A stretch of DNA of 64,000 bases from Escherichia coli (GTDB lineage: Bacteria > Pseudomonadota > Gammaproteobacteria > Enterobacterales > Enterobacteriaceae): the NCBI RefSeq assembly GCF_001677475.2, contig NZ_CP015229.1; one strand, 5' to 3'. Both the position numbers and the translations under genes were made by a program. Shown piece by piece: positions 1 through 36,191 of the stretch (its first letter is position 1; the number at the start of each line of letters is the position of its first letter). Under the pieces are notes generated by a model. That model saw only the letters and a list, made by a program, of their open reading frames with translations, searched no databases and had not been told where the DNA came from.

Positions 1-190
1 CGGTCATCAGGCCACTTCAGGTAATCCCTGCGAAGGAAAACTCACCGATCAATTTGGCCAAATACATTATTTACTACTGGAGCCTGAAGAAGGAAAAATT
101 TTCACTAAAGGAGACAAAGTGTTAATTATTTGCCGACTTTCTGCAACGCGATATTTGGCGGAAAACAATCCCTGGCCCCAAATATTGTAA
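1..190 (+). CDS. yqiJ: 3' end of inner-membrane protein gene (NfeD-like partner of flotillin); start lies upstream of window
   Basis: Open frame (phase starting at nt 2) runs without stops to TAA at 188-190; sits directly upstream of yqiK as in the E. coli yqiJK operon (synteny recalled, not searched). Confidence 0.6.
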
Positions 191-216
191 TTTATTAATC
201 AAAAGGAAATTTAATA

Positions 217-1878
217 ATGGATGATATTGTTAATTCTGTGCCCTCCTGGATGTTTACCGCAATTATTGCCGTATGCATTCTGTTTATTATTGGAATTATT
301 TTCGCCAGGCTCTATCGTCGCGCTTCGGCAGAGCAAGCTTTTGTTCGTACTGGTTTAGGTGGGCAAAAAGTGGTAATGAGCGGTGGCGCAATCGTGATGC
401 CGATCTTTCATGAAATAATCCCCATCAATATGAATACCCTGAAGCTGGAAGTCAGCCGCTCAACCATTGATAGCCTGATTACGAAAGATCGTATGCGCGT
501 CGATGTAGTAGTCGCTTTCTTTGTGCGGGTAAAACCTTCAGTAGAAGGGATTGCCACCGCCGCCCAGACGCTGGGGCAACGCACCCTGTCGCCTGAAGAC
601 TTACGTATGTTGGTTGAAGATAAATTTGTCGATGCCCTCCGTGCAACAGCTGCGCAAATGACCATGCATGAGTTACAGGATACCCGCGAGAACTTCGTGC
701 AGGGAGTACAAAATACCGTAGCTGAAGATCTGTCGAAAAACGGCCTGGAACTGGAAAGCGTTTCACTTACCAACTTTAACCAGACGTCGAAAGAACATTT
801 CAATCCTAACAACGCCTTTGACGCCGAAGGTTTAACCAAGCTGACGCAGGAGACGGAGCGCCGTCGTCGCGAACGTAACGAAGTTGAACAGGATGTAGAA
901 GTTGCGGTGCGTGAGAAAAACCGTGATGCGCTTTCGCGGAAGCTGGAGATTGAACAACAAGAAGCGTTTATGACGCTTGAACAGGAGCAGCAGGTTAAAA
1001 CCCGTACCGCTGAGCAGAATGCGAAAATTGCAGCTTTTGAGGCCGAGCGTCGTCGGGAAGCAGAGCAGACGCGTATTCTGGCTGAACGACAGATTCAGGA
1101 AACAGAAATCGACCGCGAACAGGCCGTCCGCTCAAGAAAAGTTGAAGCTGAACGTGAAGTTCGCATTAAAGAGATCGAACAGCAGCAGGTCACCGAAATC
1201 GCTAACCAGACGAAATCGATCGCTATTGCCGCCAAATCGGAACAACAGTCCCAGGCAGAAGCGCGTGCTAATCTCGCACTTGCAGAAGCGGTAAGCGCCC
1301 AACAAAACGTAGAAACCACTCGCCAGACTGCCGAAGCCGATCGTGCTAAACAAGTTGCCCTAATCGCTGCCGCGCAGGATGCAGAAACCAAAGCGGTTGA
1401 ACTGACCGTGCGGGCGAAAGCAGAAAAAGAAGCCGCAGAGATGCAGGCGGCGGCTATCGTTGAGTTAGCCGAAGCTACACGTAAAAAGGGTCTGGCGGAA
1501 GCAGAAGCACAACGTGCGCTGAACGATGCTATCAACGTACTTTCTGATGAACAAACCAGCCTTAAATTCAAACTGGCCTTGTTGCAGGCGCTACCTGCGG
1601 TAATAGAGAAATCCGTTGAGCCGATGAAGTCTATCGACGGCATCAAGATTATTCAGGTCGATGGATTAAACCGAGGTGGTGCTGCGGGGAATGCGGCATC
1701 AGGCAGCGTTAGTGGCGGAAACCTGGCAGAACAGGCATTGTCTGCCGCCCTTTCTTACCGCACACAGGCACCACTGATTGACTCCTTGCTCAATGAAATC
1801 GGTGTTTCAGGCGGCTCACTGACGGCATTGACCTCACCCTTAACCTCAACAACTCCCGTCGAAGAAAAAGCAGAGTAA
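217..1878 (+). CDS. yqiK: Flotillin-like SPFH/band-7 protein YqiK
   Basis: 553-aa ORF with N-terminal TM segment and long E/A/Q/R-rich coiled-coil region typical of flotillins; hairpin terminator follows at ~1890-1925. Confidence 0.88.
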   Translation: MDDIVNSVPSWMFTAIIAVCILFIIGIIFARLYRRASAEQAFVRTGLGGQKVVMSGGAIVMPIFHEIIPINMNTLKLEVSRSTIDSLITKDRMRVDVVVAFFVRVKPSVEGIATAAQTLGQRTLSPEDLRMLVEDKFVDALRATAAQMTMHELQDTRENFVQGVQNTVAEDLSKNGLELESVSLTNFNQTSKEHFNPNNAFDAEGLTKLTQETERRRRERNEVEQDVEVAVREKNRDALSRKLEIEQQEAFMTLEQEQQVKTRTAEQNAKIAAFEAERRREAEQTRILAERQIQETEIDREQAVRSRKVEAEREVRIKEIEQQQVTEIANQTKSIAIAAKSEQQSQAEARANLALAEAVSAQQNVETTRQTAEADRAKQVALIAAAQDAETKAVELTVRAKAEKEAAEMQAAAIVELAEATRKKGLAEAEAQRALNDAINVLSDEQTSLKFKLALLQALPAVIEKSVEPMKSIDGIKIIQVDGLNRGGAAGNAASGSVSGGNLAEQALSAALSYRTQAPLIDSLLNEIGVSGGSLTALTSPLTSTTPVEEKAE

Positions 1879-2079
1879 ACCCTCTTCTAGGAATAATCCC
1901 TGGCCCAAAAAGCCGGGGATTTTTTATATCTGCGTTCCGCTAAAAAGTGTAAATGATCAGGTTGTTGCAGCGTTTTGCGTGACTGCTCGGGGAAGGCAAA
2001 ACTGCATCAGAGAAAGCATTGCGCGGGGTCTGGCGCTCATCAACAATCGGGGAGTCAGTAAGGGGCTGAAACGGGAAAG

Positions 2080-2222
2080 CCCCTCCCGAAGAAGGGGCCT
2101 TATAGAAGGAAAGGGTTATGATGAAGTTCGTCATCATACTGATTGTGTTGTTACTGTTAAGTTTCCCGACTTACTAACAACTCATCAGAGGGGGGAGAAA
2201 TCCTCCCTTACCCTTGTTCCTT
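2080..2222 (-). ncRNA. sibE: Sib antisense sRNA (antitoxin) overlapping ibs
   Basis: Inferred from established Sib/Ibs architecture (sRNA ~140 nt, fully antisense to ibs ORF); GC hairpin at ~2075-2100 could be the 3' end. Boundaries approximate. Confidence 0.5.
2118..2177 (+). CDS. ibsE: Ibs-type 19-aa hydrophobic toxin peptide (type I toxin-antitoxin)
   Basis: ATG ATG AAG ... TAC TAA encodes MMKFVIILIVLLLLSFPTY, the Ibs peptide I recognise; located between yqiK and hldE where K-12 carries ibsD/ibsE. Which paralog this is cannot be decided from sequence alone. Confidence 0.75.
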   Translation: MMKFVIILIVLLLLSFPTY

Positions 2223-2296
2223 TACTTTAGGTTGAAAAAAAAACAGCGTCAATAGATCTGCCTGCTACGAAGCGAGATCTGTGAAGCGCTTTCCGG

Positions 2297-3730
2297 TTAG
2301 CCTTTTTTATCCTGTTGGATCTTCTTGATAATATTAGTGGTCGAGCAACCGTCTTCAAAGTTGAGCACCAACACTTCGCCGCCGTTGGCCCAGACTTCTT
2401 TACTCCCGGCAATCTCTTCTGGTTTATAATCGCCGCCTTTCACCAGCAGGTCTGGCAGGATACCGGCGATCAAGCGCTGCGGCGTGTCTTCTTCAAACGA
2501 CACCACCCAGTCGACCGCTTCCAGTGCGCCCAGCACAATCATACGCTGTTCGAGCGGGTTAACGGGGCGGGAATCCCCTTTCAGCCGTTTGGTGGAGGCA
2601 TCGCTGTTGACGGCGACAATCAAACGGTCACCCAGTTTACGGGCATTTGCCAGATAAGAGACGTGTCCGGCGTGCAGGATGTCAAAGACGCCATTGGTCA
2701 TCACCACTTTTTCACCGCGTTTACGCGCTGCCGCTACAGCAAGCTTCAGTTCCTCTTCGGTCATCACGCCAAAGCCGGTATCTGCACGTCCACGTACTGC
2801 GTTTTCCAGCTCGATCGGCGAAACCGTGGATGTCCCCAGTTTGCCGACCACCACACCAGCCGCCGCATTGGCAAAGAAGCAGGCTTCTTCCAGCGAATTA
2901 CCCGCTGCCAGCGTTGCCGCCAGGACACCAATCACCGTGTCGCCCGCACCGGTAACGTCATACACTTCCTGCGCCTGAGTTGGCATATGCAGCGGTGCTT
3001 TACCCGGTTGCAGCAGCGACATACCCTGTTCGGAACGGGTCACTAACAGAGCCGAGAGTTCGTAATCGGCAATCAGTTTCATGCCGCGCTCAACAATCTC
3101 TTCTTCGGTCTTACATTTACCGACAACAGCTTCAAATTCCGAGAGATTCGGCGTTAACAGCGTAGCGCCGCGGTAGCGCTCAAAATCGGTACCTTTTGGA
3201 TCAATCAGCACCGGAACACCCGCTTTACGCGCCAGTTGGATCATCTGCTGTACGCTTGCCAGCGCACCTTTGGCGTAGTCAGAAAGCACCAGCGCGCCAA
3301 TCGAACTCAGTGCCTGATTAATCCGCTCGTGCAGCGGCTGCGGATCAACCCCTTCAAAACCTTCTTCGAAATCCAGGCGGATCAGCTGTTGGTTACGGGA
3401 AAGCACTCGCAGTTTGGTAATAGTCGGATGCGTCGGTACAGAAACGAAGTCGCATTTTACGTTGACGTCCGCCAGTGATTTACTCAGCGCACGCGCCGCA
3501 TCATCAATACCGGTCAACCCGACCAGGCGAGCGTTAGCACCAAGAGAAGCGATGTTCATCGCCACGTTGGCTGCGCCGCCCGGACGTTCTTCAATGGTAT
3601 TAACTTTAACCACGGGCACCGGCGCTTCCGGCGAGATACGGCTGGTGGGACCGTACCAGTAACGATCCAGCATCACATCACCAACCACCATCACTCCTGC
3701 ACGTTCAAACTCTGGCAGCGTTACTTTCAT
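2297..3730 (-). CDS. hldE: Bifunctional D-glycero-beta-D-manno-heptose-7-phosphate kinase / heptose-1-phosphate adenylyltransferase
   Basis: 477-aa ORF; N-terminal ribokinase-like and C-terminal cytidylyltransferase-like regions; conserved position downstream of glnE. Confidence 0.9.
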
Positions 3731-3777
3731 TCCTGTCTCCTGAGAGATTCAAAATTTGCGCGCGATAATATCACACT

Positions 3778-6618
3778 TCATTCTTCCACCAGCCACTTCT
3801 GCCAGCTTGCCCGCACCAGTTCACGCTCTGCGGTGAAGCAATCCTCCGACACATGGCCCGGCAATTCCTGTAATGCCAGATGATGAAGTTCATCGCGCAG
3901 CGTCGTGTAAGCACGGGTCAGCGCCATCGCTTCCTGCTCTTCCATAATGTCGTTTTGCGCCAGTAGTTCCAGAATGCGCACGTTGTCTGACCAGCGCGTT
4001 AACTTCGGTTTTTCATGAGCGTAGCGCAACACCAGATATTGAGTAATAAATTCGATATCGGTAATTCCGCCTTCATCGGCTTTGATATCAAAGCGATCGC
4101 GATGTTTATTGCCGAGATGGGCACGCATTTTCTCGCGCATTTCCCGCACTTCTGTTTGCAGGGTTTTGCCTTCGCGCGGCAGCATCATAATTTCCCGACG
4201 CACCGCGTCAAAGTGCGCAGTGAGCTGTGGATCGCCATACACTACCCGCGCACGCACCAGCGCCTGATGCTCCCACGTCCAGGCCTCGTTTTTCTGATAA
4301 TCAGCAAACGCTTCAGCGGATGTCACGAGCATTCCCGCCGCCCCGGACGGACGCAGCCGCGCATCCACTTCGTACAAAATGCCGGAAGAAGTACGCGTAC
4401 TGAACAGATGCATAATGCGTTGCGCCAGACGCAGATAAAATTGCCGCCCGTCGATTTCCCGCTCGCCGTCGGTCATCACATCCATCGGGCAATCATGGAG
4501 GAAGATCAGGTCAAGATCGGAACTGTAACCTAACTCCCAACCGCCCAGCTTGCCGTAGCCGACCACCGCAAAACCACGGCCTTCGCGTTCGTTCAGGTGA
4601 TTTGGCTTACCGTAGCGGGCAACCATTTGAACCCACGCCTGCTGAACGACGGCGTCAATCATGGCTTCCGCCAGCCAGGTTAAGTGATCGCTCACTTTCA
4701 TCACCGGTAGCGTACCGGCGATATCCGCTGCCGCAATACGTAACAGTTGCGCCTGTTTGAACTGACGCAGCGCCTCAAGCTGTTGTTCTTCGTCATCTTC
4801 CGGCACGCGCAGTAAATACTGGCGCAGTTCATCACGGTAGGCATCCGTCGCCGTCGGCTGGTAGAGAGTGTTTGGATCGAGCAGTTCATCCAGCAATAAC
4901 GGATAACGCGCCAGTTGGCTGGCAATCATCGGCGATGCGGCACACAGAGAAATCAAATGTTTAAGCGCCGCGGGGAATTCACTGAGCAATTCTAAATAGG
5001 TGGTGCGGGTAACAATCCCCACCAGCAAGGCGGTAATGCGCGACAGCGTAACGGCAGCGTCTTCACGCGCACAGACATCACTTAGCAAATGTGGCATCAG
5101 ATGGTCGAGCACCTGACGTCCTCGCGGCCCGATGGTGCGCTTATCCAGCTCTTTGCGGAAATCGGCAATCAGCGTTAGCACCTGTTTGCGATCATCCTCG
5201 CTAAGATGCGCCAGCACTGGCGTGGTGTCATCTTCCTGCAACGCATCCTGCCACAGCTCACGCCACTGTTCCGACAGCGACTCTTCCTGAGTTTCGCTTT
5301 CGTCGTCGCCAATCAATTCGTTAAACACCCGGCGCACATTGGTCATATGTCCGGTCAGCTTCCCTGTTAGTTGCGACCAGTCAGCGAAATCCATTGCCCA
5401 CGCCAGCCGCGCACGATTAAGCTCATCAGAAGGAAGCGTCTGGGTTTGTTCGTCGTTAATGCTTTGCAGCAGGTTTTCCAGACGCCGCAGGAACAGATAC
5501 GCCACTCGCAATTGTTCAGCATCGTTTTCAGAAAGCAGATGCAGCGCGGCAATAGCGCTGAGCGTTGGTAGTAAAGAGCGCGATTGCAGCGACGGTTCAC
5601 GCCCGCCGCGAATAAGCTGGAATACCTGGACGATAAATTCAATTTCTCGAATGCCACCCGCGCCAAGTTTGATGTTGTCGGTCAAACCACGTCGACGCAC
5701 TTCGCGGGCAATCATCCCTTTCATGTTGCGCAGCGACTGGATGACGCTGAAATCGATGTAACGACGGAAAACAAACGGGCGCAGCATCGCACGCAACTCG
5801 TTAGCATAGACGCCTTCGCTATCGCCCATAATCCGCGCCTTGACCATCGCGTAACGCTCCCAGTCGCGCCCCTGCTCCTGGTAATAATCTTCCAGTGCCG
5901 CAAAGCTCAGCACCAGCGGGCCACTTTCGCCAAACGGACGCAGTCGCATATCCACGCGATAGACGAAACCATCCTGCGTTGGTTGATCCAGCACTTTAAT
6001 CAGCCGCTGCCCCATGCGGGTAAAAAACTGCGCGTTATCCATTTCCCGGCGTCCGCCCTGGGTACAACCATGTTCCGGCCAGGCAAAAATCAGATCGATA
6101 TCAGAGGAGAAATTCAGTTCCCCGCCGCCCAGCTTACCCATGCCTAAAATCAGCAGCGGTTGCGCTTCGCCCTGCGCATTGCACGGCGTTCCCCATTCGC
6201 GGCAGCAGGCGTCATACAGCCAGTCACGCGCCGCAACAATCAGCGTCTCCGCCAGATGACTGAGCTGCTGCAAAATGCTCTCTTCAGTAACCAGTGCCAG
6301 CGTTTGCGCCCAGGCGATGCGCACCATAATGCGCCGCCGGAATAGCCGCAGCTCGCGCATTACCCCGGCTTCGTCACTCACATTACTGAGCGCCTCCTGC
6401 AACCAGGCAGCGTAATGCTGCCATTCGTCGGCCTGCGGCGGTTGGCTTTCCAGTTCCGTCAGCCACTCTGGATGCGCAATCACGCTGTCCTGCACAAAAT
6501 CACTGAAAGTAAGTACTGACTTCGCCTGTGCGCTAAGTGATTCCTCGGCTAAAGGCTCTGGCAGCCGCTCAACAACGGTCTGCCAGTACTGCTGTAACGG
6601 TGAAGAGAGCGGCTTCAT
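3778..6618 (-). CDS. glnE: Glutamine synthetase adenylyltransferase/adenylyl-removing enzyme
   Basis: ORF track gives 1014 aa from an upstream alternative start; the recognised GlnE N-terminus [13 protein letters not shown] begins at the ATG whose complement is at 6616-6618, giving 946 aa with two nucleotidyltransferase domains. Confidence 0.9.
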
Positions 6619-22475: not shown

Positions 22476-22551
22476 GGCCCCTTAGCTCAGTGGTTAGAGC
22501 AGGCGACTCATAATCGCTTGGTCGCTGGTTCAAGTCCAGCAGGGGCCACCA
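22476..22551 (+). tRNA. ileX: tRNA-Ile (anticodon CAU, lysidine-modified)
   Basis: 76-nt sequence ggccccttagctcagtggttagagcaggcgactCATaatcgc...gggccacca folds as a canonical cloverleaf with CAT anticodon and encoded CCA; its 3' 46 nt are repeated at 36093-36141. Confidence 0.92.
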
Positions 22552-22554
22552 GAT
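22506..22554 (+). repeat. attL core (3' part of ileX plus 3 nt)
   Basis: Exact 49-bp identity with 36093-36141, read directly from the sequence. Confidence 0.85.
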
Positions 22555-22593
22555 TTCAATGAATTACAGATGTATCCAAACTATCTTGCTTTA

Positions 22594-22627
22594 CCAGGAT
22601 ACTTATAGGATACCTCTGAGAAGTATT
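22594..22627 (+). promoter_or_regulatory. Arm-type repeat near attL (AGGATAC motifs; candidate integrase/accessory-factor binding site)
   Basis: ccaggatacttataggatacctctgagaagtatt closely matches 35964-35997 near attR (29 of 34 positions). Confidence 0.45.
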
Positions 22628-22765
22628 AACAAGTAAGAATTGGCTCATGCCTACAGAACAGTTGGGTCGTAGCAGCCGTTCACCTGCGAACAAGAAAGTG
22701 CTACGGGTCTGAACTTTTGCCCCCAACTCTCCAAGAGACCGGCAAAAACCCTGACGGAGGTATCA

Positions 22766-22909
22766 ATGGATACTTTAAGAAAGGGCTCAGACCTGCTGTC
22801 TGCACGTGTGATTGCCGTTACAGGTTTAATCGCAGCACTTGGCAATTTAGGTCTATGCCCAATAGCCGTAGTGCTAGTATGTATAGCTTTAGTTATCATG
22901 CTGAAGTAA
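22766..22909 (+). CDS. 47-aa small hydrophobic membrane peptide (MDTLRKGSDLLSARVIAVTGLIAALGNLGLCPIAVVLVCIALVIMLK)
   Basis: Strong SD (ggagg) 6 nt upstream of ATG; followed by hairpin gcccagctttcgctgggc; a single predicted TM helix. Too short to be in the ORF track. Confidence 0.5.
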   Translation: MDTLRKGSDLLSARVIAVTGLIAALGNLGLCPIAVVLVCIALVIMLK

Positions 22910-23356
22910 TGACAGCGTAACAAGCTCGGCCCAGCTTTCGCTGGGCCTCCCATTTCTACCTCCCAAAATCTATTAGAAACAATAAGCCACTAAAGAAAGA
23001 GCTTTTGCTGGCTACAATACTCACATACAAACAATTTTTATTTTTCGCGGGCGTAAAAAAACGATGGGGCTGGCAGTCCGGAAGACGTCAGGGTACAGAG
23101 ATTTGTACCCGCCTCTCCCTGTGCATGAGCACAATAAGTAACCGAAGGCGGAATTCCGCCCTCGGTACTCACATATGAGAAACGATATTTCTTCCACCGA
23201 TACCCTTTATTTGGGTATCGCGAGTAAGCCCCAAAATCTGGGTGTTACTCTTACTACCCAAACTACGGGTAGTTTCCGTAGTTTCATGGTCGAGTTGCAG
23301 ATCTGCAACTCACCCACCAGCCAACGCAATTTTGCGTTATCGGGAATATCAGCAAG

Positions 23357-23641: not shown

Positions 23642-23652
23642 AGTGCGCTACG

Positions 23653-23973
23653 TTACTTGTCTTTATTCGGCTGCAACTTATCCGGCACATTTCCGGTAGT
23701 TTCCATCAGGTAATCAGCCAGTATCTGTGGGAGGTTGTCGGCAACTCTGGCACTGGCATTACAGGCTTTAACCACTTCCCTTTTAAGCCCATCCAGCATA
23801 GCGGGGGTAATGTGTGGGAAGCTCCTTTGCATAGTAAGCGGGAGGCTGTCCATGATTGATGAAATCTGACTCGCCAGTTTTGAAAGCGCGTACATGCAAA
23901 ACTCTGTATCAATCACGTCACCGCGATCGCGCTCGTTTTTAAGTTCCTGCGCCTCCGCCTGTGCTGTCAGTAA
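23653..23973 (-). pseudogene. Small terminase subunit (lambda Nu1-like), C-terminal fragment separated from its N-terminus by the IS insertion
   Basis: Translation ...AQAEAQELKNERDRGDVIDTEFCMYALSKLASQISSIMDSLPLTMQRSFP... parallels lambda Nu1 C-terminal region (...AQADAQELKNARD...ETAFCTFVLSRIAGEIASILDGLPLSVQRRFP...) from memory. Confidence 0.7.
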
Positions 23974-24085
23974 TCTGATCCTGACTCGTAAGTATGAGAC
24001 GACAATAACTCAGTCCGCCTGGCGCCGATTATTCTGGCCGGTTTTGTAACCTGAGTGTCATTTACATGATCCAACAGGAAATGGC

Positions 24086-25465
24086 GTGACGCTCAATACT
24101 TCTCAGGTCAGTTACTATATGACTCAGCGTAAGAAAGGTATAACTCAGCATATCTCGGCCATGAAGGCTGGTATCTCAGTCCGTTCTGGTCGTCGGATCG
24201 AAAAAGGAGAGTGGGCAAAAAACAGTGTTCGGCACTGGCGCACACGCAAAGATCCTCTGGAAGCTGTGTGGGACAGCATGCTTGTTCCTCTGTTGAAAGA
24301 GAGGCCGGCTCTGACACCAACAACTCTACTGGAGATGCTACAGGATAAATATCCCGGCCAGTACCCCAACAGCCTTCGAAGAACAATGCAACGGCGGGTT
24401 CGCGAATGGAAACTACAGTATGGTACAGAGCAGGAGGTCATGTTCCGCCAGCAACATCAGCCCGGCCTGCGAGGCCTGTCGGACTTTACTGAACTGAAAG
24501 GTGTAGTTGTCACCATCGCCGGTAAGTTGTTGGCGCATAAGTTGTATCACTTCCGTCTGGAATGGAGCCACTGGAGCTGGATGCGGGTTGTTCTGGGTGG
24601 TGAGAGCTTCTCTGCTCTGGCTGAAGGCCTGCAGGAAGCCCTCGGACAACTGGGCGGAGTGCCGGTAGAACATAAAACGGACAGCCTGAGGGCAGCATGG
24701 AAACAACAGGGCGAAGATGGACGCCGCGAGCTGACTGAGCGTTATGCTACTCTCTGTCAGCACTACGGAATGCAGGGCGTACACAATAATGCCGGTCGGG
24801 GCCACGAAAATGGCTCGGTTGAAAGTGCCCACGGACATCTGAAAAGGCGTATCTGTCAGGCGCTGATACTGCGGGGCAGTAACGACTTCAGCACCATAGA
24901 AGAATATCAGGCCTTCATCACTCAGCAGGTTATGCGGCACAACCGTAACAATCAGGATCTGGTCAAGGAAGAACGTCTTCATCTGAAACCGCTGCCGCTT
25001 CGTCGCAGTGCTGACTATGATGAGCTGACTGTGAGGGTTAGTCGCAGCAGTACCATCAATGTGAAGCACGTCGTCTACAGCGTACCTTCCCGGCTTGTAG
25101 GTCAACTGTTACGGGTCAGGTTATGGGACGATCGTCTGAGCTGTTACGTTGGCAGCAGCGAGGTCATGAGCTGCCCTCGCGTCAGACCAGAAAAAGGGAA
25201 GACGCGGGCCCGTCGTATCGACTTCCGACATGTGATCGACAGTCTGGCAAAAAAGCCCGGTGCGTTCTGCCATGCAACGCTGAGAAATGACATCCTGCCG
25301 GACGATGAATGGCGGAGGCTGTGGCGTCGCTTATGTAATCATCTGGAGCCCGATATGGCAGGAAGGCTGATGGTACATGCCGGGAAACGTGGATCTGCAC
25401 CGGCTGATGCGCTTCCTGGGTATAAAAGAAAAGGCGTTGCCGGTAGTCAATGTGATACAGCATAA
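24086..25465 (+). CDS. istA: IS21-family transposase IstA
   Basis: 459-aa ORF (GTG start) with N-terminal HTH and DDE-type catalytic region; sits immediately upstream of an IstB-like gene. Confidence 0.8.
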   Translation: MTLNTSQVSYYMTQRKKGITQHISAMKAGISVRSGRRIEKGEWAKNSVRHWRTRKDPLEAVWDSMLVPLLKERPALTPTTLLEMLQDKYPGQYPNSLRRTMQRRVREWKLQYGTEQEVMFRQQHQPGLRGLSDFTELKGVVVTIAGKLLAHKLYHFRLEWSHWSWMRVVLGGESFSALAEGLQEALGQLGGVPVEHKTDSLRAAWKQQGEDGRRELTERYATLCQHYGMQGVHNNAGRGHENGSVESAHGHLKRRICQALILRGSNDFSTIEEYQAFITQQVMRHNRNNQDLVKEERLHLKPLPLRRSADYDELTVRVSRSSTINVKHVVYSVPSRLVGQLLRVRLWDDRLSCYVGSSEVMSCPRVRPEKGKTRARRIDFRHVIDSLAKKPGAFCHATLRNDILPDDEWRRLWRRLCNHLEPDMAGRLMVHAGKRGSAPADALPGYKRKGVAGSQCDTA

Positions 25466-25510
25466 CCTGAGCAGTTATGAGCAACTACTGCGTGGCAAGG
25501 GAGGTTCGCA

Positions 25511-26266
25511 GTGAGCAATATCCATCACCTTGAACATAGCCTGCGTAAACTACGCCTGACACGAGTTGGAGCTGAATGGCACGCTCTGGAAAAACGAGCG
25601 CTGGCAGAAGGCTGGACACCATCGCGCTATCTTCTGACGCTATGCAATGAAGAACTCCTGTGGCGCGAGAGTGAAAAACTGCGTCGTTATAAAAAGGAGG
25701 CCCGGTTGCCAGTTGCCAAAACGCTGAGCGAATACGACTTCAGTCAGGTGCCGGAACTGAATGGAGCTCAGTTCCGGCAACTCTGTGAAACGACAGACTG
25801 GGTTGATGCAGGAGAAAACGTTCTGCTGTTCGGAGCCAGCGGGTTGGGGAAAAGCCATCTGGCGGCAGCGATCGTGGATGGCGTAGTAGGTCAGGGCTAC
25901 CGGGCCCGGTTCTACAGCGCAGGAGAGCTGTTGCAGGAACTACGTAAAGCCAGAGCTCAGTTGAAACTGAATGAGCTGCTACTGAAACTGGATCGCTACC
26001 GGGTGATAGTGGTGGATGATCTTGGCTATGTCAAACGCGATAGTGCCGAAACGGGTGTGCTGTTCGAGTTAATAGCGCATCGCTATGAACGTGGGAGCCT
26101 GGTGATAACCAGTAACCATCCGTTCAGCATGTGGGGCAGCATCTTCGTGGATGAGACTATGGCGGTGGCTGCGGCAGACAGGCTGATCCATCACGGATAT
26201 ATGTTCGAACTGAAAGGGGAAAGCTACAGGAAAAAGACAGCGAAGGCAGTAACAAGCGCGACTTGA
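25511..26266 (+). CDS. istB: IS21-family helper ATPase IstB
   Basis: 251-aa ORF with Walker A (GASGLGKSHLA) and Walker B (VIVVDDLGY) motifs; RBS gggagg upstream of GTG start. Confidence 0.85.
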   Translation: MSNIHHLEHSLRKLRLTRVGAEWHALEKRALAEGWTPSRYLLTLCNEELLWRESEKLRRYKKEARLPVAKTLSEYDFSQVPELNGAQFRQLCETTDWVDAGENVLLFGASGLGKSHLAAAIVDGVVGQGYRARFYSAGELLQELRKARAQLKLNELLLKLDRYRVIVVDDLGYVKRDSAETGVLFELIAHRYERGSLVITSNHPFSMWGSIFVDETMAVAAADRLIHHGYMFELKGESYRKKTAKAVTSAT

Positions 26267-26325
26267 TGTCGCCCTGAAGGGTGCGGCCAGTATAGTTGGC
26301 GCGAGTCGGCAAAACTAGTTGACGT

Positions 26326-26526
26326 CTAATATCGTAAGAGTTCATCATCATCAATCTCGCCTTTGTCGTTTGTAAGCTGGCTAATTGCATTGTTAACCCT
26401 ATTGTCTATCACGCTGGCAACATCATAAAACGCCTCACGGCCTTTACGTTCAACGGGAGTCACTCCCCACTTGTCGAATGCTGTAGCACTTACCCGGCAG
26501 CTTTGCGCCATGGTTTTTTTGTTCAT
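26326..26526 (-). pseudogene. Small terminase subunit (lambda Nu1-like), N-terminal fragment truncated at the IS boundary
   Basis: MNKKTMAQSCRVSATAFDKWGVTPVERKGREAFYDVASVIDN... parallels lambda Nu1 N-terminus (MEVNKKQLADIFGASIRTIQNWQEQGMPV...); ORF ends exactly at the IS junction. Confidence 0.7.
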
Positions 26527-33429: not shown

Positions 33430-33648
33430 TTACACCGTCTGCGTTCTGCGAGTGGATGCAAGATAAGCATCGAGATCAGTGCGCATATACAGCACTTTGC
33501 GCCCCAGCTTATGGAAAGGGATTTTTACCTTGCCAGTACAGGCCCAGTTCGCCAGCGTTTGATTGTTAACGCCAAGGTAGGCAGCAGCTTCAGCACGTGT
33601 AAGGCGGTCAGTTGATAAATCAGATTTCTTTAAATTCATATCTATCAC
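33430..33648 (-). CDS. alpA: AlpA/excisionase-family HTH regulator
   Basis: 72-aa ORF with LTRAEAAAYLGVNNQTLANWACTGKVKIPFHKLGRKVLY (MerR-like HTH_17 pattern). Confidence 0.75.
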   Translation of the reverse strand: MIDMNLKKSDLSTDRLTRAEAAAYLGVNNQTLANWACTGKVKIPFHKLGRKVLYMRTDLDAYLASTRRTQTV

Positions 33649-33709: not shown

Positions 33710-33786
33710 AATAGCCAGTTGCTGTGGGGAGGTTACCAGTTATTTAGCCTTAATAGCCAGCTATTAAGATACACTAGCCAGCTATT
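33710..33786. promoter_or_regulatory. Three TAGCCAG-containing operator-like repeats upstream of alpA
   Basis: aatagccagttgc (33710), aatagccagctatt (33752), ctagccagctattg (33773); plus inverted repeat atcaccgtg...cacggtgat at 33651-33682. Confidence 0.45.
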
Positions 33787-34507
33787 GGGGGTGAACAAGT
33801 TCAAACGAAGAATATTTATCAGGTCTTGGTGGTTGTGCTCCTGATTCTTTAATCCATTTATCCAGAGTGTTTTTACTTACTTTCCCATGATAGTAAACAG
33901 AAAGCTCGTTCAATAAACCTGTTTTACTGGCTTTAGGGTACTTTTCCCATGTTAGTTTAATTACGTGCATAACTTCATTGTAATAATGATTTCTTGGTTT
34001 GCGCGCTTTTTCTTTCTGTGATAAGGATAAAGCATCTTTTATTTTTTTATCTTTTTCATGGTTCGATATAATTTCTTCAAAAAAGTCATTAAGCAATAAC
34101 TCAACACCAACCCTAGTAAGTTTGTCTGCGTGATTACGCATTCCGACATGGTACAATGCAACTGCTGAATTTAAAGTATCGACAACCTGACAAGATAGTT
34201 TACTATCAAATATTAAAAAACCACATGAATCCATTCTTATAGCTAATTCAATAGGATATTGCTCGATTTCTCTTAATTCTAAACCATAACACAAAAGAAA
34301 TTCTCTTGTTGGATACTTTGATTTATAAAAATAATCTCTTATATCATCAATCAAGCGTTTTATAGCCTCTATGGTGGAGTTTTTCGGGGATAAAGATACA
34401 GGAACGTTTAAAACTGAAGAGTCTCGCCCACCAGTAATTAAATCATTCATAACCGAATAAATAATATATTGTTTGACCGATATATTGTTATCACCCATAT
34501 ATGTCAT
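33782..34507 (-). CDS. AT-rich orphan protein (241 aa) in the integrase-proximal cargo position
   Basis: Long ORF with visibly lower GC than the rest of the island; overlaps the int stop; no motif I can recognise. Confidence 0.6.
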   Translation of the reverse strand: MTYMGDNNISVKQYIIYSVMNDLITGGRDSSVLNVPVSLSPKNSTIEAIKRLIDDIRDYFYKSKYPTREFLLCYGLELREIEQYPIELAIRMDSCGFLIFDSKLSCQVVDTLNSAVALYHVGMRNHADKLTRVGVELLLNDFFEEIISNHEKDKKIKDALSLSQKEKARKPRNHYYNEVMHVIKLTWEKYPKASKTGLLNELSVYYHGKVSKNTLDKWIKESGAQPPRPDKYSSFELVHPQ

Positions 34508-35912
34508 TCTTTTCTTGTACTATAGCAAATAGTAAACGACGTTTTTCATCATCACTCATGCCCTCCAGTGCGGAAAGTAATTGCGCATCGATAGATTTTT
34601 TACTCTCCACCAGCCCGGCATGTTCCAGAATTGCCCGTTCTATCCGTGATGCTGGCTCCAGCAGTTCATCAGCACCGAAATGTAAATACCCCTGCGTTAC
34701 GTCGGCACTTCGCATAGTGCGGTGATTCATCAGGCGCTTGAGGATGTAATTACCCACGCCCACCAGCTCAGCAACCGTTCCGAACGTCCGGCGTGCGTCG
34801 TGCCACTTAAACGGGACAGGGAAGAGCATTTCATCGTTCGCCTCAGGAATGGTAGCCGCGCTTATCCGGTCTATGATGTGCCGTGTCTCCTGAATCACTC
34901 CCTTCACGCCAGGAAACACCAGCACATCATCAGCAGCTTTGTTTTTTAGCCTGCGAAGAAACATTTTCCGCAACGTATCAGTGATCGGCAGTTCAAGCGG
35001 ATCCCCGTTTTTCGTGGTGTCTATCCAGAAAAAGCGACCGCCCATATTCACGCGATCCCACGTAAGGCCAAAAACTTCTGATTTCCTCAGTCCGGTAAAC
35101 AGTGCCATTTCCACGGCATCACATACCGTAACAGCTATATCATCCCTTTCCTGTTCGCCCTGGTCGCGCACAGCAGCTACAGCAGCAAACCAGCGGGGAA
35201 AATCATGCAGGCGGATACGTTCCGTTTTTCTTACCGTTCCGTGCCACTGGCGCTTGGTGCTCAGTACCAGAGTCGGCGGATCCGGTAAAAGAGTATTACC
35301 CGCATCATCACGGTAATGATCATGCGCAAACCGACACACAGCACGTAGCGCACGCGCCCATAAATCGGCCTGTGCCTTGCTTCCTGTACCAACCCCAGCC
35401 CGTAACGTGGTTTTATCAGCACCGAACCATACAGCCCCATCAGTGATGGCCTTATGCCGTTGTTCCACCCGTTCGCGGGAAATACTGGCGAGGGTATGGG
35501 CCATCCAGTCACCGGAATAATTCTGTAATATGCTGCGGTACTGTTTTTCTGTGGAGGGTTTCAGGCGGTGGCCACGATTTTTTACGTAGGCGTCAATCGC
35601 CTCACTCAGCGTTATCATGGCCTTGTTGTTAGTGCGCTTTGCTATGTTCGGATTTATCCCCGTTGTGGCGACTTCGCCAAGGAGTTCCATAGCTTTAGCC
35701 CTGGCATTATCCACGCTCAGATCAGGAAAACGCCCCAGCGTTGCACGAATAAATTTTCCGTTACGCTTACGGGAAATGCAGAAACTTTTCACACCAGACG
35801 AACCTACACGGACACGCAGCCCGTTAACCTCCGTATCACCATATTCGACCTGTCCATGTTCCGGCGTTGGCAGTTCTGCAATTTTTACTTTAGAGAATCT
35901 GAATAATTTCAC
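34491..35912 (-). CDS. int: Tyrosine site-specific integrase
   Basis: 473-aa ORF from a GTG start; catalytic signature region (LRKSE..., WHDARRTFGT, ...QGYLHF) with an N-terminal arm-binding-like domain. Confidence 0.85.
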   Translation of the reverse strand: MKLFRFSKVKIAELPTPEHGQVEYGDTEVNGLRVRVGSSGVKSFCISRKRNGKFIRATLGRFPDLSVDNARAKAMELLGEVATTGINPNIAKRTNNKAMITLSEAIDAYVKNRGHRLKPSTEKQYRSILQNYSGDWMAHTLASISRERVEQRHKAITDGAVWFGADKTTLRAGVGTGSKAQADLWARALRAVCRFAHDHYRDDAGNTLLPDPPTLVLSTKRQWHGTVRKTERIRLHDFPRWFAAVAAVRDQGEQERDDIAVTVCDAVEMALFTGLRKSEVFGLTWDRVNMGGRFFWIDTTKNGDPLELPITDTLRKMFLRRLKNKAADDVLVFPGVKGVIQETRHIIDRISAATIPEANDEMLFPVPFKWHDARRTFGTVAELVGVGNYILKRLMNHRTMRSADVTQGYLHFGADELLEPASRIERAILEHAGLVESKKSIDAQLLSALEGMSDDEKRRLLFAIVQEKNDIYG

Positions 35913-35935: not shown

Positions 35936-35997
35936 GGTATCCTGGAAAATCGCTTGTTCTGCTCCAGGATACCTATAGGATACCGTAAAGAAGTATT
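35936..35997 (+). promoter_or_regulatory. Arm-type repeats near attR, directly upstream of the integrase start
   Basis: ggtatcctgg / ccaggatacc inverted pair plus tandem GGATACC copies and the block shared with 22594-22627. Confidence 0.45.
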
Positions 35998-36092: not shown

Positions 36093-36141
36093 ACTCATAA
36101 TCGCTTGGTCGCTGGTTCAAGTCCAGCAGGGGCCACCAGAT
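36093..36141 (+). repeat. attR core (displaced partial copy of tRNA-Ile 3' end)
   Basis: 49-bp exact copy of 22506-22554; upstream sequence is not tRNA-like, so this is not a functional tRNA. Confidence 0.85.
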
Positions 36142-36191
36142 ATAGCAAAGGCTGACGAGAAATCGTCAGCCTTTTTCTTTTTATATATCAG

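Follow-up and report, generated by a model that had tools for sequence, protein, structure and literature searches.

In an Escherichia coli chromosome, the integrase gene (int) of a 13.6-kb island inserted at the tRNA gene ileX lies at the end of the island distal to the intact tRNA, and its product carries a C-terminal tail. We consider it very probable that the enzyme is a lambda-like, arm-binding integrase of an ileX-targeting, PICI-type satellite, that its placement follows from an inherited, inverted attP polarity, and that the tail is specific to its clade. The window (the whole stretch of DNA analysed, 64,000 nt) covers the segment rpoD-mug-ileX ... nfeF(yqjH)-nfeR-aer. As the original prediction had it, int is found at the attR end: 181 nt separate its start codon from the attR repeat, it reads inward, away from attR, and 11.9 kb lie between its 3' end and the tRNA. 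The same prediction held both the tail and the orientation to be unusual, while allowing that homologues commonly sharing them would make them unremarkable. Alignment with relatives shows that both are common among homologues, so the finding is an ordinary one; polarity and tail were described accurately but are ordinary traits of the lineage, and current understanding is unchallenged.

The only tRNA gene in the window was named tRNA-Met(CAT) by ARAGORN, while the identical sequence is annotated as ileX, tRNA-Ile(CAU), in K-12 and in RefSeq genomes. A repeat search of the window found an exact direct repeat of 49 nt, which begins in the anticodon stem/loop (tRNA position 31) and ends 3 nt beyond the tRNA 3' end. 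Against the unoccupied K-12 locus the island is a clean insertion, and the sequence outside either att site (left of attL, right of attR) matches K-12. The two ends of the island are made up of the following features:

22476–22551 (+), intact ileX (tRNA-Ile2, anticodon CAU), the integration target, rebuilt at attL (ARAGORN; K-12/RefSeq annotation).
22506–22554 (+), attL copy of the 49-nt identity block (exact repeat; alignment with the empty K-12 site).
36093–36141 (+), attR copy of the 49-nt block, which is the displaced ileX 3' fragment and is antisense to int (repeat; K-12 alignment).
36147–36174 (+), native ileX terminator hairpin, stranded at attR between nfeF and int (same sequence 3' of ileX in K-12).

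The extent of the identity block, from the anticodon stem/loop to the tRNA 3' end, corresponds to an anticodon-loop sublocation, a category that the Williams 2002 classification of tRNA-targeting integrases reportedly contains. The stranded terminator looks bidirectional and stands between int and the convergent nfeF transcript; no terminator-like site was found 3' of the rebuilt ileX at attL.

Every gene of the island is transcribed in the same direction as int, in the order int, a 241-aa ORF, an AlpA/HTH_17-type gene, an Icd-like gene, a D5-type primase, SSB, capsid, decoration protein, and terS. The capsid gene encodes a lambda E-type major capsid protein and the decoration protein is of lambda D type. 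The int-proximal genes are:

34491–35912 (−), tyrosine integrase of 473 aa with arm-binding (aa 9–94), core-binding, and catalytic domains (Pfam, invariant alignment columns, AF2, Foldseek).
33782–34507 (−), ORF of 241 aa that begins before int ends, with an overlap of 17 nt at the int stop (no family match in Pfam, PHROG, and NCBIfam searches).
33430–33648 (−), AlpA/HTH_17-type small DNA-binding protein, a candidate excisionase or satellite activator (Pfam HTH_17, E = 1.4e-11; PHROG excisionase/regulator families).

An IS21-family element at about 23992–26332 (istA 24086–25465, istB 25511–26266) splits terS, as comparison with the island of strain TUM1886 reveals, which is otherwise 99.9% identical and has no IS. 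The components listed for PICI-type satellites by de Sousa et al. 2023 (PMC10085698), namely int, an AlpA-like or other regulator, a primase-replicase, a capsid(-modifying) gene, and terS, are all present and co-directional, and no tail or lysis genes were found in the window island. By gene content the 13.6-kb island is a PICI-type phage satellite in ileX. The core set of the cfPICI described in the same work is incomplete in it: the lambda E/D-type genes are there, but no terL, portal, or connector/adaptor genes were found among the ORFs and annotations of either the window island or the TUM1886 island, and terS is IS-split. Some other ileX islands, for example A41, do carry the cfPICI-type genes terL, portal, and connectors.

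The int ORF starts with GTG, and RefSeq has the identical 473-aa product (WP_021536613.1); a consensus sigma-70 scan upstream of int found no promoter. Pfam assigns an Arm-DNA-bind_3 domain to aa 9–94 (E = 2.5e-13) and a Phage_integrase domain to aa 266–403 (E = 1.1e-12). The catalytic residues expected of a tyrosine recombinase, R276, K301, H371, R374, H397, and Y409, are all present, and in an alignment of 116 sequences all are invariant except H371, which is nearly so. The AlphaFold2 model built from this alignment has a mean pLDDT of 94.7, and its best structural matches in Foldseek are lambda Int (1z1b, 1z1g) and Tn1549 Int (6en2), at only 13–17% sequence identity. The N-terminal domain alone matches the HPI/P4-like arm domains 3jtz, 3rmp, and 3ju0 (TM 0.72–0.88, normalised to target length), so that the arm-binding domain expected of heterobivalent integrases is recognised both by Pfam and by its structural match to 3jtz and 3rmp. 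In a BLASTP comparison with K-12 IntA only the arm domain aligns (E = 0.012), and relatives in a phage collection (tblastn) reach at most 29% identity, none exceeding 30%, with alignments that stop by residue 429. Sequence and model together place the enzyme among the heterobivalent (arm-binding) tyrosine integrases, as a subfamily of its own with a conventional build. Judged from its homologues and their loci, the clade is widespread, previously uncharacterised, and belongs to phage satellites; the int gene itself occurs in 84 of 5,426 complete E. coli genomes.

The catalytic tyrosine in the motif QGYLHF is Tyr409, and it is followed by 64 residues, compared with 14 after the catalytic Tyr342 of lambda Int. 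The longer C-terminus that had been predicted is therefore real, but not its length of about 45 residues: relative to tail-less relatives, the true extension is about 25–36 aa. In the AF2 model, the helix at 414–432 is common to the tail-less relatives as well, and only the two helices that follow constitute the extension:

34494–34601 (−), clade-specific C-terminal extension, aa 438–473, with two predicted helices (438–450 and 454–472).

In the 116-sequence alignment, 50 tail-bearing sequences have 56–82 residues after the tyrosine, and the other 66 have 22–65 (median 38). The tail motif reads hydrophobic-D-x-x-L-x-x-L ... L-S/T-x-E-E/Q-K-R/L-x-L-L/M. Among representatives clustered at 50% identity, only the nearest 12 or so clusters align to query residues 460–473, while alignments to more distant relatives of about 400–420 aa end at about 430–440. 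All listed homologues at 73–100% identity have the tail, most of them being 469–483 aa long (extremes 461 and 499 aa), and they belong to Escherichia, Salmonella, Citrobacter, Klebsiella, Enterobacter, Xenorhabdus, and other genera; at 34–63% identity the tail reaches Aeromonas, Oceanisphaera, Colwellia, Alteromonas, Rheinheimera, and Vibrio. A Pfam search with the tail alone returned only noise (E ≥ 0.035), and NCBIfam gave no specific family. As aligned and modelled, the tail is real coding sequence and a trait of one sub-clade that extends from Enterobacterales to Alteromonadales.

In lambda Int and Cre, the segment after the catalytic tyrosine is known to pack on the neighbouring protomer or to gate catalysis. 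By analogy, we infer that the tail may extend a segment which, in the recombination tetramer, makes contact with adjacent protomers or controls activity. A more specialised role, to which we give little credence, would make the tail a docking surface for an element- or helper-phage-encoded factor that switches between integration and excision, specific to the ileX-targeting satellite lineage. The partner could be the 241-aa protein or an AlpA-type excisionase, with docking setting the direction of recombination or helper-phage-induced excision, and this version seems to us equally doubtful. It draws on the translational coupling of the 241-aa ORF to int through the 17-nt overlap, on the homologues of this ORF that follow int in many Enterobacterales (directly so in only a subset), and on the tail itself, which is predicted to be a well-folded, conserved, amphipathic helical hairpin of no known family. 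A homologue of the 241-aa protein is, however, not detectable at the loci of tail-bearing Xenorhabdus, Oceanisphaera, Oceanimonas, and Alteromonadales and their neighbours, and AlpA-like genes, which follow int at many of the related loci, stand beside tail-less and tail-bearing integrases alike. A strict link between the tail and the 241-aa ORF was rejected on the many tail-bearing loci that do not have this ORF; two tail-bearing Aeromonas loci, with just 600–712 nt of downstream DNA, offer too little sequence to judge. The preferred reading of the tail stays with the clade-specific extension of the post-tyrosine segment.

The polarity of int relative to its tRNA was examined in one genome per species, scanned with a profile of 10 tail-bearing representatives (an earlier, mixed profile of 20 sequences was too diverse), which yielded 78 related loci at 31–77% identity, each with int set to the plus strand. 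Polarity could be assessed at 76 of them: 19 with a tRNA gene in reach and 57 with the intact tRNA out of reach. At all 19, the tRNA lies 1.4–9.8 kb past the int 3' end on the opposite strand, and a displaced tRNA copy lies 163–283 nt upstream of int. The targets are ileX-like CAU tRNAs in sixteen cases, tRNA-Thr in two, and tRNA-Phe in one. Exact repeats of 46–52 nt that begin at tRNA position 31–33 are found at 17 of the 19, and the other two have exact blocks of 18–19 nt; the identity block starts at position 31–33 in at least 18 of the 19, and at one further locus just a single block of 19 nt was found, covering tRNA positions 50–68. In the group of 57 without an intact tRNA in reach, 44 loci have an antisense tRNA 3' half (about positions 31–77) at 144–340 nt upstream of int, and ARAGORN called no complete tRNA upstream of int at these loci. 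A recognisable tRNA half was not found upstream of int in the remaining 13, which probably use tRNAs missing from the reference set.

Of the 76 assessable loci, which come from other genera, 63 hence share the polarity of the window island and none shows the opposite one; at none of the 78 related loci examined does an intact tRNA adjoin int. Within E. coli, all four ileX islands inspected (A36, TUM1886, FDAARGOS_1262, and DCE7) have an int of 473–475 aa beside nfeF. The tRNA-distal polarity is, on the evidence of these loci, an old and fixed trait of the integrase lineage across Gammaproteobacteria. It is also found in members without the tail (Marinomonas, Methylophaga, and Photobacterium, as well as users of tRNA-Thr and tRNA-Phe), so tail and polarity are not linked. 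The tail-less Marinomonas, Methylophaga, and Photobacterium share the target as well, and a link of the tail with the ileX target was likewise rejected.

That an integrase gene normally sits beside its tRNA, as the original prediction assumed, is true of K-12 intA, intB, and intS: at ssrA-intA, leuX-intB, and argW-intS, int immediately follows the tRNA or tmRNA gene and has the same strand. It does not apply to the lineage of the window integrase. As a statement about the usual layout, it holds for the three K-12 elements checked, and otherwise draws on general knowledge. A literature search for surveys of how int is oriented relative to its tRNA found none, and PMC7192596 places int near an end of the element and says no more on its position.

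In the mechanism that we propose, attP would hold a tRNA-like core about 180 nt upstream of int and antisense to it. The integrase would bridge arm and core sites in the intasome, strands would be exchanged inside the anticodon-loop region of ileX, and the gene would be made whole again by the tRNA 3' part that the element carries. Recombination with ileX would then leave int at attR with the displaced fragment, and the rebuilt tRNA at attL: int would come to lie at attR because the attP core is antisense to it, and for this same reason its upstream region would face the displaced fragment and the ileX terminator.

The sequences that flank the core fit such an attP. An imperfect second repeat (22594–22627 and 35964–35997, 85% identity) resolves into copies of the motif AGGATAC, and five of the eight occurrences of this motif in the 64-kb window sit at the two ends of the island, two near attL and three near attR:

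22596–22613 (+), two tandem AGGATAC motifs (22596–22602 and 22607–22613), candidate P' arm sites.
35937–35983, three AGGATAC motifs between int and attR (35937–35943 on the minus strand; 35966–35972 and 35977–35983 on the plus strand), candidate P arm sites.

A repeated 7-mer is present in both arms at 15 of the 18 related loci checked, with 2–5 copies in the int-proximal arm and, with one exception, two in the tRNA-proximal arm. Enterobacterales and two of three Oceanisphaera loci have a GGTATCC-like form of it, and more distant members have GTGCTAC, GCGTCCA, GTAGACA, or GTGCCGC. At the level of motifs, the repeated arm-type sites expected on both sides of an attP core are thus present, and the co-varying 7-mers support arm-type sites that would be bound by, and co-evolve with, the arm-binding domain. 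They also support a standard attP with P and P' arms, in which the core is merely antisense to int. The P-arm motifs overlap the upstream region of int.

The distal position of int could in principle be secondary, with the island being composite, tandem, or inverted, or with int coming from another element; we regard this as very improbable. Tandem islands at ileX do exist, as in strain A36, where additional genes and an unrelated second integrase flank the satellite on its left, and the window island does bear its IS21-family insertion. Yet the layout recurs at 63 of 76 loci in many genera, with int at 144–340 nt from the tRNA fragment, matching arm-type repeats lie beside both copies of the core, and the TUM1886 island has the same polarity without any IS. 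The same polarity across so many genera therefore speaks for an inherited property of the lineage, with no rearrangement of the window island. Practically negligible is the chance that the tail is an artefact of a frameshift, read-through, or an over-long ORF call, as the 17-nt overlap of int with the next ORF and a first reading made from raw sequence alone might suggest, given that RefSeq annotates the same product, that the tail motif is kept in 50 sequences from many genera with helix-typical substitutions down to 35–40% overall identity, and that block-mean pLDDT is about 90–95 over most of the tail (65 for the last three residues).

Compared with known systems, the window integrase shares with lambda, Tn1549, and Tn916 Int the three domains, the catalytic R, K, H, R, H, Y set, and the arm-type motifs flanking the core; unlike lambda Int, to which it is so distant in sequence, it targets a tRNA gene and not lambda attB. 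With IntA, IntB, IntS, and the Yersinia HPI Int it has in common the Arm-DNA-bind_3 fold, the 3' part of a tRNA gene as target, and an int 5' end that abuts attP. The differences are just as clear: in the P4-like IntA, IntB, and IntS elements, int is tRNA-proximal and on the same strand, whereas here it is antisense and beside the displaced fragment, and the identity block, unlike those of P4-like and HPI-type elements, starts at the anticodon loop (49 nt). Two hallmarks of the P4-like group are accordingly missing, similarity in the core and catalytic domains (K-12 IntA being the comparison, with no significant BLASTP similarity beyond the arm domain) and a tRNA-proximal, same-strand int.

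For curators and for programs that search for islands, the practical point is that int need not abut the intact tRNA. In the lineage of the window integrase, int marks the tRNA-distal end, and an antisense tRNA half is to be sought about 150–300 nt upstream of it; ileX, moreover, is easily mislabelled as tRNA-Met, which hides the target. Sister groups with and without the tail that share target and polarity also offer a clean comparison for the role of the C-terminal extension.

A similar target has been described in Klebsiella pneumoniae, where the island KpGI-5 at the met56 hotspot lies 3' of a tRNA(CAU) gene between 46-bp repeats of the tRNA 3' end (PMC3419637). KpGI-5 differs from the window island in having no integrase (PMC3419637), but the length of its repeat falls in the range of 46–52 nt found for the integrase family, and close homologues of the window integrase are present in K. 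pneumoniae. The met56 gene is probably the orthologue of ileX, and would then be the same target.

The candidate arm-type sites of the integrase family, that is, the 7-mers repeated in both arms of attP, shift as the integrases diverge, as seen across the loci of related integrases (L009-L076):

GGTATCC-like: Enterobacterales and two Oceanisphaera loci
GTGCTAC: Marinomonas, Vibrio, Chromatocurvus and Porticoccaceae
GCGTCCA: Colwellia
GTAGACA: Methylophaga
GTGCCGC: Oceanisphaera merdipullorum

It looks as if the candidate arm sites co-evolve with the integrase arm-binding domain. Two further features lie within the integrase and at the 3' end of its gene:

int aa ~159-176 (nt ~35385-35438, minus strand): insertion of ~17 residues, GAVWFGADKTTLRAGVGT, in the core-binding domain
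33782-34507, minus strand: 241-aa ORF, with a 17-nt overlap at the int stop codon

The insertion, across which pLDDT is slightly reduced (88-89), is found in some members of the tail-bearing clade and is missing in most relatives. Homologues of the 241-aa ORF are placed in the same way, overlapping int, in part of the Enterobacterales only; searches of Pfam, PHROG and NCBIfam gave no match for this ORF.

The target gene at 22476-22551, called tRNA-Met by ARAGORN, is ileX (tRNA-Ile2, CAU, lysidine-modified). Relatives target 16 CAT tRNAs, and for every one of them E. coli ileX is the nearer sequence (79-100% identity), with metT and metV more distant. In Klebsiella, "met56", described as a hotspot for islands and with repeats of 46 bp (PMC3419637), is probably ileX too. 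No terminator-like hairpin lies within 450 nt of the rebuilt ileX (22552-23000 scanned), and the native ileX terminator remains at attR (36147-36174); ileX transcripts may read through into the antisense strand of the left end of the island.

In the E. coli ileX satellites (L003, L004 and further E. coli matches), the half from int to SSB is common, while the morphogenesis half varies:

variant 1: lambda E/D-type capsid and decoration genes
variant 2: ClpP-protease/major-capsid fusion and DUF1441
variant 3: full terL/portal/capsid set (A41)

A constant half joined to a swapped one indicates modular exchange among these satellites at a single integration site.

The satellite in the window also carries an insertion sequence:

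23993-26331: IS21-family insertion sequence, inside the satellite
24086-25465, plus strand: istA, with a Mu-transposase C-terminal domain
25511-26266, plus strand: istB, the IstB ATPase

Comparison with the island of E. coli TUM1886 (L002), in which terS is intact, shows that this element splits terS; the satellite in the window has probably lost the ability to be packaged. The sequence left of the element (23652-23992) matches 3831-4171 of L002 and that from 26332 onward matches L002 from 4165 onward, an overlap which implies a target duplication of ~7 bp.

In E. coli A36 (L001), a second gene block lies to the left of the satellite (148-5692), encoding at its right-hand end, on the int strand, a separate tyrosine integrase of 438 aa whose sequence is not related to that of int. 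Block and satellite may form a tandem island array at ileX.
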